Origin: Saccostrea cucullata
Taxonomy: Eukaryota
Length of the DNA stretch: 64,000 nt
Assembly (NCBI RefSeq): GCF_032062105.1
Contig: NW_026928083.1
Span: 186,001 to 250,000, forward strand
Direction: 5' to 3'
The notes beneath the pieces were generated by a model, which was not told the DNA's origin, searched no databases, and worked only from the letters and a program-made list of their open reading frames with translations. Below are positions 28,901 to 30,414 of this stretch, one piece after another; the stretch's first letter is position 1, and each line of letters begins with the position of its first letter. The position numbers were made by a program, and so were the translations under genes.

Positions 28901-30414
28901 GAACCCAATGCTACATGCAAACCGGTAGGCATACTTGATTTATGTGTTAAATTGAAGCCTGTGTAACGGGAGAGGAGAAAATGCAGTGGACCAGACCAGG
29001 ATTCGAACCCGGGCCCCCTGAAACTCCAGTCAGGTGCTCTACCAACTGAGCTATCTGGCCAACAGCCATCGAACCCAGCTGACCGCCACATTCCTCCCTC
29101 CTGAATGGTCTTTGGCCCTCCAAAGATCCCAACCCAGGCTCATCCCTGGCAGGCCTTTCACCTGTGAATTCCAGGGCATGGCACAGCACCAAATGTAATG
29201 GGAGAGGAGAAAATGCAGCGGACCAGACAGGGATTCAAACCCCGACCCCCTGAAACTTCTGTCAGGTGCTCTACCAACTGAGCTATCTGGCCACCGGGGA
29301 TCGAACCCGGCTGACTGCCACAAATGAATCGAGCAGGGGGTCAATATGGCGTTGCAAACTTGTGTATTTATAGCGAGCGCAGCGAGGCGGCGTGAAGCGC
29401 CGCTCGTGTAGCAAGCTCAATAGACTAAAGTGTACGAACGGAGGAAATTCAGGTTGAAATCTGCACATTGTTCCAAGAAATTTTTATGAGTCCACGTGAA
29501 AAAATTCTAAATTCCCAATAATCCTTTGCGGTGCATGGCAACATGGTGGCTAAAACATAGCAACAACTTACTTGAAAAAAATTACAAACAACAATTTAAT
29601 GCAATCTCCATGCCACAAAACTATCGTTTGCGTTCTAAGTCAACAAGACTTCTTATTTGACATCATACTTTTGTCACATAAAAGCTCAGGTATTGCCGAT
29701 TTTGTCGGAAACTTCCGAAAAGTTCGGAATCTCGATCCCGATGCCTGGGAAGTGATTTTTTTTTAATAATTCTTTTCTTCTTTTTTAATGAACTAGCTGA
29801 GGATAGGCAGTGCAAGTCAAAGCTGTGTAAATGTTTTTGATTCTAAATAACTGTGCTCGCCCCAACGGTCGCACCGTAGAATATATTATATAGAGGGGGT
29901 AGAATTTTTCAATATTTGGCTAATTTAGCGACTTATTGATAAAAATTCAGGTGTCTGTGGTATGTTGATAGTCAAAATTTTTAAATAATAAAGGTCTCAT
30001 TGTATAAACACATATATATACATGGTGTACCCAAAGTTTTGTAAATTTGTCGAGGCAAACTCAGAAATCTGCACAATTTTCTAAACTACCAGCGAATCTG
30101 ACACTTCTGTTGATTAATGAGTTAGGGCTTTTTTGACGAAATACTTCAATATAAGAATATGCTTTTCTTTTTTCACTCCAAGGTAAATACGATAACAAAA
30201 ATGCCGATTACGATTTACTCTACAGCAGTGAGTAGGAAAAACCGTCTGAAAACTGATTCAAGACTAACCCTTTTATGGTTTTGTTATCAACTGAAGTTAC
30301 ATAGTCAATTGAATCGTCTTCTTTCTTTTCATTTTCTGCCGCCACTGATTTACTAAGGTCTTTTCTCTCAACTTTCTTTGAAAAGCCAAAAGAAAGAGGC
30401 TTCGTCTCCGCCAT
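19932..30414 (-). CDS. GPKOW: G-patch domain and KOW motifs-containing protein (Spp2/MOS2 family splicing factor); exons 30414-30269, 27499-27369, 27116-26974, 26745-26642, 26187-25998, 24592-24460, 21589-21259, 21010-20899, 20709-20640, 20413-20328, 20072-19932
   Basis: Eleven GT-AG exons join in frame. N-terminal [24 protein letters not shown]-patch [28 protein letters not shown]...[13 protein letters not shown]1; RS-rich linker; C-terminal [21 protein letters not shown]...LETVIPK...[10 protein letters not shown]. Confidence 0.95.
20200..20285. repeat. Exact 43-bp tandem duplication in the last GPKOW intron
   Basis: tatttaaagaaagaaatctcttgaggaaaaagaatttaaatca starts at 20200 and 20243. Confidence 0.9.
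22771..23050 (+). mobile_element. Degenerate tRNA-derived SINE with V-domain-like core
   Basis: A box (gtggcgcaattg), B box (ggttcgaatcc), core gatgagac..taaaccga..tccc and (aaac)n tail. The body resembles the copy at 48330-48581. Confidence 0.7.
23928..24248 (+). mobile_element. Short HINE/Helentron-type non-autonomous element
   Basis: 5' aacaagagatgtttgtgaaacac, core aagtccaaggggcataactct, ggac/gacag microsatellite remnant and 3' hairpin ccctcc(c)tt-cttc-aaaggaggg. The same 5' end occurs in the 34.8-39.0 kb elements. Confidence 0.7.
24982..25966. mobile_element. Probable non-autonomous TTAA-targeting (Kolobok-like) DNA transposon
   Basis: ttaa-ggaagcata ... tatgcttcc-ttat termini; non-coding interior. 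Confidence 0.5.
27781..28100 (+). mobile_element. Short HINE/Helentron-type element
   Basis: 5' aactagaa, gacggatggac microsatellite remnant, 3' hairpin ccccacgctt-ttc-aagcggggg followed by tataa. Confidence 0.55.
28962..29322 (-). mobile_element. TRIM (miniature LTR retrotransposon) with tRNA-derived LTRs (Helenus-type), in GPKOW intron 1
   Basis: Two 129-bp TG...CA direct repeats (28962-29090, 29194-29322) flank a 103-bp interior. On the - strand, PBS TGGTGCTGTGCC (tRNA-His-like) starts 2 nt after the 5' LTR and PPT AGGAGGGAGGAA abuts the 3' LTR. Each LTR contains a cloverleaf with A and B boxes. Confidence 0.85.

Follow-up and report, generated by a model that had tools for sequence, protein, structure and literature searches.

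The window, the whole 64,000-nucleotide stretch of Saccostrea cucullata DNA analyzed here, carries a TRIM of 361 bp on its minus strand at 28962..29322, delimited by its repeat, by its match to a family and by comparison with empty sites. It consists of a 129-nt LTR, an internal part of 103 nt and a second 129-nt LTR. The two LTRs (28962-29090 and 29194-29322) form a direct repeat that is 88% identical at a spacing of 232, and both have TG..CA termini when read on the minus strand. On that strand the internal part starts with TT-TGGTGCTGTG and ends with a tract of 12 purines. An earlier note had described this locus as an LTR-PBS-PPT-LTR structure of 361 bp, which is confirmed by the repeat, the termini, the PBS and the PPT. 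The absence of coding capacity, also claimed there, holds for the element strand within the scope that was tested; on the minus strand, the TRIM is overlapped by two stop-to-stop frames (121 and 133 aa), both of which extend into its flanks.

All features of the element lie on the minus strand. In the 5′ LTR (29194..29322), a T-arm-like hairpin at 29294..29310 contains the B-box-like GGGTTCGAT, possibly an extra TFIIIC site, and is followed by a tRNA-like cloverleaf with A and B boxes and an 8-nt anticodon loop (29220..29292) and by a T4 run (29210..29213) that is predicted to act as a leaky Pol III terminator. The internal part holds a 10-nt tRNA-His primer-binding site with one C-to-T decay in this copy (29182..29191), a first predicted hairpin (29144..29176) that is similar in Helenus-2 copies, a second box complementary to the variable loop and T arm of tRNA-His (29130..29142), a second predicted hairpin upstream of the PPT (29109..29126) and the polypurine tract itself (29091..29102). 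The 3′ LTR (28962..29090) repeats this order, with a decayed T-arm-like hairpin (29062..29078), a tRNA-like cloverleaf with an 8-nt loop (28988..29060) and a T4 run at 28978..28981, the predicted end of the full-length RNA. Both tRNA-like units were found by ARAGORN and by Rfam RF00005, the latter at 58.9 and 53.2 bits, where the gathering score is 29. All 21 of 21 stem pairs are kept in both LTRs, as the claim of intact cloverleaf stems required, and the second B-box-like sequence reported upstream of the unit is likewise present within its T-arm-like hairpin. The A and B boxes are intact in the window copy, and the only T runs of at least four on the element strand are those just behind each tRNA-like unit.

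Helenus, also called TRIMp3, comprises TRIMs whose LTR contains a tRNA-like sequence; their animal members have 4-bp TSDs, and the helper is presumed to be a Gypsy element (Kojima 2024, PMC10886601). At 361 bp, with two LTRs and with no RT or other protein, the window element falls within the size range of this group (<1000 bp). It is an aged, decayed copy of Helenus-1_SaGl, a non-autonomous oyster family, so that the name Helenus, put forward in the earlier note, was correct and the family is already known. Taken by itself, the family match points to a probable Saccostrea oyster as the source. In the accessible part of the supplement, Table S1 lists Helenus-1_SaGl with an LTR of 129, an internal part of 103, a total of 361 and a TSD of 4, and Fig. 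S2C assigns it a His primer (PMC10886601). The same lengths, TSD and His PBS were found here, with no differences at the level of the family. As compared by eye, the LTR and internal sequences published for it, in the part of the record available, are those of the natural copy L002, a young copy from which the window copy differs at 22 of 361 positions (94% identical). Nine of these differences are of CpG type, and they are distributed as nine in the 5′ LTR, six in the internal part and seven in the 3′ LTR. The distance between the two LTRs of the window copy is 0.127 (K2P), which makes it an older copy; in some of its sisters the two LTRs are identical. Exact matches to two LTR motifs number 197 (the LTR core) and 1055 in the genome. 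With Helenus-1_SaGl in print, the element is mainly relevant as a source of false tRNA gene calls. Elsewhere in the genome, L192 and L195 are tandem tRNA-Met, -Thr and -Lys gene clusters with a unit of ~1.27 kb.

Two other groups of TRIMs invite comparison. Cassandra is likewise a TRIM with a small-RNA gene in its LTR, tandem arrays and a Pol III promoter, but it carries 5S rRNA instead of a tRNA, belongs to plants and has been shown to be transcribed by Pol III, which is only predicted for the present element (PMC10886601). The biv-TRIM elements resemble it as bivalve TRIMs with internal inverted repeats; according to the accessible text on them, a canonical PBS could not be identified there, whereas the present element has one (Satovic et al. 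2019, PMC6934838).

Pol III transcription of Helenus was proposed without validation by Kojima (2024, PMC10886601), who found the A and B boxes to be conserved across Helenus families. For the present element, Pol III transcription and the SINE ancestry suggested in the earlier note are inferences. RNA reads were considered from three oligo-dT runs of one study, in which 125-171 reads per run fall on the TRIM in both directions, with no pile-up of starts or ends. Between 60 and 74% of them continue into unlike flanks, and this pattern fits passive read-through in host transcripts. Runs X21-X23 all contain reads that jump back by 37 nt within the LTR (positions 68-104) and that probably derive from a transcribed copy with a local duplication.

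One competing explanation accepts the same TRIM and holds that its genomic RNA comes from Pol II read-through from host or flanking promoters, the tRNA-like unit being kept for folding or processing of the RNA and not as a promoter. Oligo-dT reads that cross both ends into the flanks agree with it, as does the T4 run of the 5′ LTR, which would end many Pol III transcripts early. Among related His-primed families, two double changes occur in acceptor-stem pairs outside the A and B boxes both in Helenus-2 and in L143; such double-sided changes hint that the fold matters at the RNA level, and to that extent they also point toward this explanation. Against it, conservation of the A and B boxes extends from family to family (PMC10886601), poly(A) libraries cannot show Pol III RNA, and Helenus-2 has two of its 21 stem pairs broken. 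We consider the read-through explanation unlikely and retain Pol III as the preferred source of the RNA.

A second alternative, which we regard as very improbable, is that the LTR yields a functional tRNA, either a +1 frameshift suppressor with an 8-nt loop or the element's own primer. The full cloverleaf (21/21 pairs) and the size of the loop would suit such a role, and Helenus-2-type loops begin with CT. A functional tRNA gene has a 7-nt anticodon loop with U33; the commonest loop of the Helenus-1 family, CCGGAGTT, has 8 nt with C at position 33, and an 8-nt loop without U33 argues against decoding. Moreover, in the accessible supplement, Fig. S1 omits Helenus-1_SaGl from the families that possibly encode tRNAs (PMC10886601). 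The earlier note had reasoned from 8-nt loops that differ between the LTRs. The length stands as an argument, but the difference has no bearing on decoding because both loops of the window copy are separately decayed forms of the family loop. Self-priming is contradicted by the sequence, since it is tRNA-His that the PBS matches: with a CCA end, the LTR unit would match only the TGG of the PBS, whereas tRNA-His matches 10 nt and is the sequence copied into the extended primer sites described below. The tRNA-like unit of the LTR is not the primer.

Real tRNA-His(GTG) genes were represented by L090 and L093, two of four loci fetched. The PBS of the family is a 10-nt match to tRNA-His plus CCA in young copies, with one G-U pair in the window copy. 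Among LTR-PBS junctions collected by exact pattern, 58 are of the family type and 15, at 10 distinct sites, are extended, in that 16-19 nt of tRNA-His complement replace the 10-nt PBS. The extended sites rejoin the element at internal position 21, 26-27 or 53, or enter Gypsy DNA. In retroviruses, plus-strand synthesis is established to proceed ~18 nt into the primer, as far as the modified A58. Where the copied end exceeds the PBS in length, it has to anneal through short homology and would leave scars of the extended type. The array L087 has an extended PBS in its first unit only, as expected for an event during reverse transcription. The copies in which the 10-nt PBS has given way to 16-19 nt of tRNA-His complement are footprints that strongly support tRNA-His as the primer, in line with the His primer that had been proposed from the window copy. 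Several extended-PBS copies with a common junction may descend from one event. At the PBS of L091 and at L092:1500-1566, the tRNA-His complement reaches ~33 nt, beyond the usual 18-nt stop, and in L092 this over-long primer copy leads back, at the T-arm box, into an internal part of Helenus-2 type.

The full 18-nt His site occurs at 170 places in the genome. Twenty were fetched, of which four are Helenus-1 copies and most others are long LTR elements, and six long His-primed elements were compared with Helenus. By BLAST, Helenus and these six have in common only the 12-nt start of the PBS and, for L124, the PPT. The idea that Helenus-1 is a simple deletion derivative was rejected on this ground, there being no further common sequence with the six. 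L124 encodes protease, RT, RNase H and integrase in Gypsy order and has an 18-nt His PBS, LTRs that are 99.8% alike and a 4-bp TSD, TAAG. Its LTR has TGTAGTGG at the start and CCGGTTACA at the end, and, alone of the six, it matches the PPT region of Helenus, at 15 of the last 16 internal nucleotides. L124 is thus a candidate for the autonomous element with common termini and a common PBS that the earlier note had advised looking for. RNA reads on L124 number 226, 230 and 69 over 9.1 kb, in both directions and from one study, which is too thin for an expression call.

Two chimeras connect Helenus to Gypsy elements, and each is a single locus in a rearranged cluster of Helenus pieces. In L088/L160, a complete Helenus LTR that keeps its TT spacer is connected, through an 18-nt PBS, to the start of gag from the L124 family (95%); the locus also has an internal deletion. 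Judged by its junction, this locus is a crossover within the primer site common to Helenus and the L124 family, and it supports the Gypsy partner that had been postulated. In L078/L161, a Helenus LTR with a PBS copied from tRNA-His runs into the integrase region of a Gypsy family that is Lys-primed and has the same 10 nt, TCCCGTTACA, at its LTR end as Helenus-1 (L161:1015-1600; L202, L204). The helper need not be unique, since L078/L161 points to a second Gypsy family and the five other His-primed long elements remain candidates; the best candidate is the L124 family. The window has its own Gypsy-type element at about 49420-57135, with LTRs that are 99.6% alike over ~1035 bp, gag and a pol in two frames. 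It was rightly set aside as a partner, as its primer site differs and is not His.

Behind the PBS, internal positions 52-64 are predicted to pair with positions 44-56 of tRNA-His (sequence index), that is, with its variable loop and T arm. When this arm was the target, 0 of 1000 shuffles reached the pairing energy of the window copy, of L002 or of Helenus-2. Because the box was first noticed by eye, the analysis was repeated against the whole tRNA minus its 3′ 15 nt, with 300 shuffles. The 13-bp helix with tRNA-His was again the best, and no shuffle reached it for Helenus-1 or Helenus-2 (0/300 each), whereas for tRNA-Lys, -Thr and -iMet between 24 and 224 of 300 shuffles reached the best helix. 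For L134, a Helenus-2B-like copy, the whole-tRNA result was not significant (46/300, at another site), against p = 0.014 with the chosen arm. Changes in the box between Helenus-1 and Helenus-2 keep the pairing by way of G-U. Of 56 Helenus-1 internal parts, among which overlapping loci may be counted twice, 43 contain the exact box. Within the 380 nt behind the PBS of the six His-primed long elements, no T-arm box was found, only helices of 6-8 bp.

Published families show how widely the box is distributed. In the accessible sequence data of Kojima (2024, PMC10886601), 13 of the 15 His-primed bivalve families were examined by eye: four scallop families have an exact 12-13-nt complement, and in the other nine the box is still recognizable, departing from the complement at a few positions at most. 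Many Lys-primed bivalve and wasp families in those data have an ACCCAC box just behind the PBS, matching the T arm of tRNA-Lys, although one Lys-primed subgroup is without it. In both of the two Lys-primed copies considered from the present genome, the best helix is formed by AACCCAC with tRNA-Lys 49-55; at 7 bp it is not significant, being reached by 136 and 159 of 300 shuffles. An over-long primer copy, such as the one in L092 that rejoins at the box, may have left this sequence behind as a relic. Its retention in both oysters and scallops favors a function over a relic. The primer activation signal of HIV-1 is a comparable separate site that pairs with the T arm of the primer tRNA. The yeast elements Ty1 and Ty3 also have a bipartite PBS, with an acceptor-stem site plus a separate site for the T arm of the primer, as described in the accessible text of PMC5371799. 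Unlike these, Helenus is a gene-less element whose two sites lie ~40 nt apart across a hairpin, and its pairing is a prediction.

The text of Kojima (2024, PMC10886601) mentions neither tRNA-copied primer sites nor chimeras nor a second tRNA-pairing box, and it names no helper for Helenus-1_SaGl, saying only that Gypsy-39_CGi uses a His primer. A literature search for a second tRNA box, an extended PBS, chimeras and follow-up studies, reaching few subscription papers or Repbase records, returned only that paper as relevant. Within that scope, neither the scars of priming, nor the chimera with the helper, nor the second box turned up in print, and all three are specialist additions to a known system. 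We consider it moderately probable that bivalve Helenus elements combine a shortened PBS with a conserved T-arm box, which is kept in His-primed oyster and scallop families and is Lys-matching in Lys-primed ones, and that the scars record priming by tRNA-His and name a PPT-sharing His-primed Gypsy as the helper, the first for an animal Helenus within the literature searched.

The search of the element's own genome gave 1649 candidates, of which 40 were scored. Thirty loci among the best BLAST matches were considered for TSDs; three that fell at the same place and one without a 5′ end were dropped. An exact 4-bp TSD flanks 21 of the remaining 26, against a mean of 0.29 and a maximum of 3 with shuffled flanks. 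The misses include the window copy, a mixed array with a false end and two same-flank loci with one mismatch. L017 has a perfect 5-bp duplication in place of a 4-bp one. A second sample, not chosen by similarity, consisted of the first 30 of the 197 exact LTR-core matches. These represent 19 distinct sites, six of them without an end, and 12 of the 13 two-ended sites have an exact 4-bp TSD, including one solo LTR and three arrays. Sister copies, a solo LTR, tandem arrays and TSDs of 4 bp are accordingly all at hand, as the earlier note had advised checking. We give almost no credence to tandem tRNA-derived SINEs, or two tRNA pseudogenes, mimicking LTRs, for although each repeat contains a tRNA-like unit with A and B boxes and arrays do exist, the ends are fixed at TG..CA without tails, the 4-bp TSDs surround whole elements, arrays and a solo LTR alike, and a PBS, a PPT and tRNA-copied primer sites are present. 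Tandem SINEs with tails, which the earlier note had named as the case against its claim, are contradicted by sisters that keep TG..CA, PBS, PPT and 4-bp TSDs. Placement in SINE2, with a single tRNA head, a body, a repetitive tail and a variable TSD, is refuted by the fixed ends and the TSDs. Mixed arrays at L016, L099, L144 and L150 show swaps of LTRs and internal parts between Helenus-1 and Helenus-2, for example a Helenus-1 internal part flanked by two Helenus-2 LTRs. Such arrays suggest co-packaging of, and template switching between, the two families.

The window copy was inserted into a MITE-like host repeat with long inverted arms (28620..29960), which is now present in pieces at 28620-28961, 29325-29372 and 29887-29960. 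The insertions are nested, as this repeat carries both the TRIM (28961/29323) and a high-copy repeat of ~520 bp (29367-29888). In 16 of 16 homologous arms from 11 loci, the empty site reads CCT(G/A)|AA(T/C)C(G/A)AG, with no extra bases. The target site CCTG at 28958..28961 is as in the empty site, and compared with empty sites the junction contains exactly four extra bases, AATG (29323..29326), where CCTG was expected; they are likely an altered second copy of the target site. Unprocessed cDNA ends were rejected as their source, TT being at the wrong end. The earlier view that no TSD survives is accurate in that there is no perfect TSD, but the four extra bases record a 4-bp duplication, two positions of which no longer match. 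Given exactly four extra bases against 16/16 empty sites, the duplication has been kept in length and not in letters.

In the mechanism that we propose, Pol III would start at the 5′ tRNA-like unit, at LTR position 31, read partially through the first T4 and stop at the second. The resulting RNA would be ~315 nt long, with ~83 nt repeated at both ends. A tRNA-His would then bind the 10-nt PBS and, across the hairpin, the 12-13-nt T-arm box. The Helenus RNA would be co-packaged with Gypsy RNA, for which the L124 family is the best candidate. A His-primed Gypsy would supply the enzymes that copy it, and integration of the copy would duplicate 4 bp at the target. In this scheme the tRNA-like unit would act as promoter and folded RNA end and would have no part in decoding. 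We are highly confident in the identity with Helenus-1_SaGl taken jointly with this Pol III and His-primed Gypsy mechanism, and more confident still in the identity alone. A question left by Kojima (2024, PMC10886601) is how a TRIM with LTRs unlike those of its helper stays dependent on that helper. A PPT and termini in common with the helper, together with two sites that hold the same primer tRNA, are testable answers, and the genomic scars offer a way of pairing TRIMs with helpers from assemblies alone.

The internal part was also inspected for a hammerhead ribozyme; the core motif was absent by eye, and there was no Rfam match. Among the wasp sequences of Data S1, putative hammerhead-ribozyme core motifs, which go unmentioned in the accessible text of the paper, were recognized by eye in Helenus-2_SyJa-LTR and Helenus-2_SyUm-LTR (PMC10886601).
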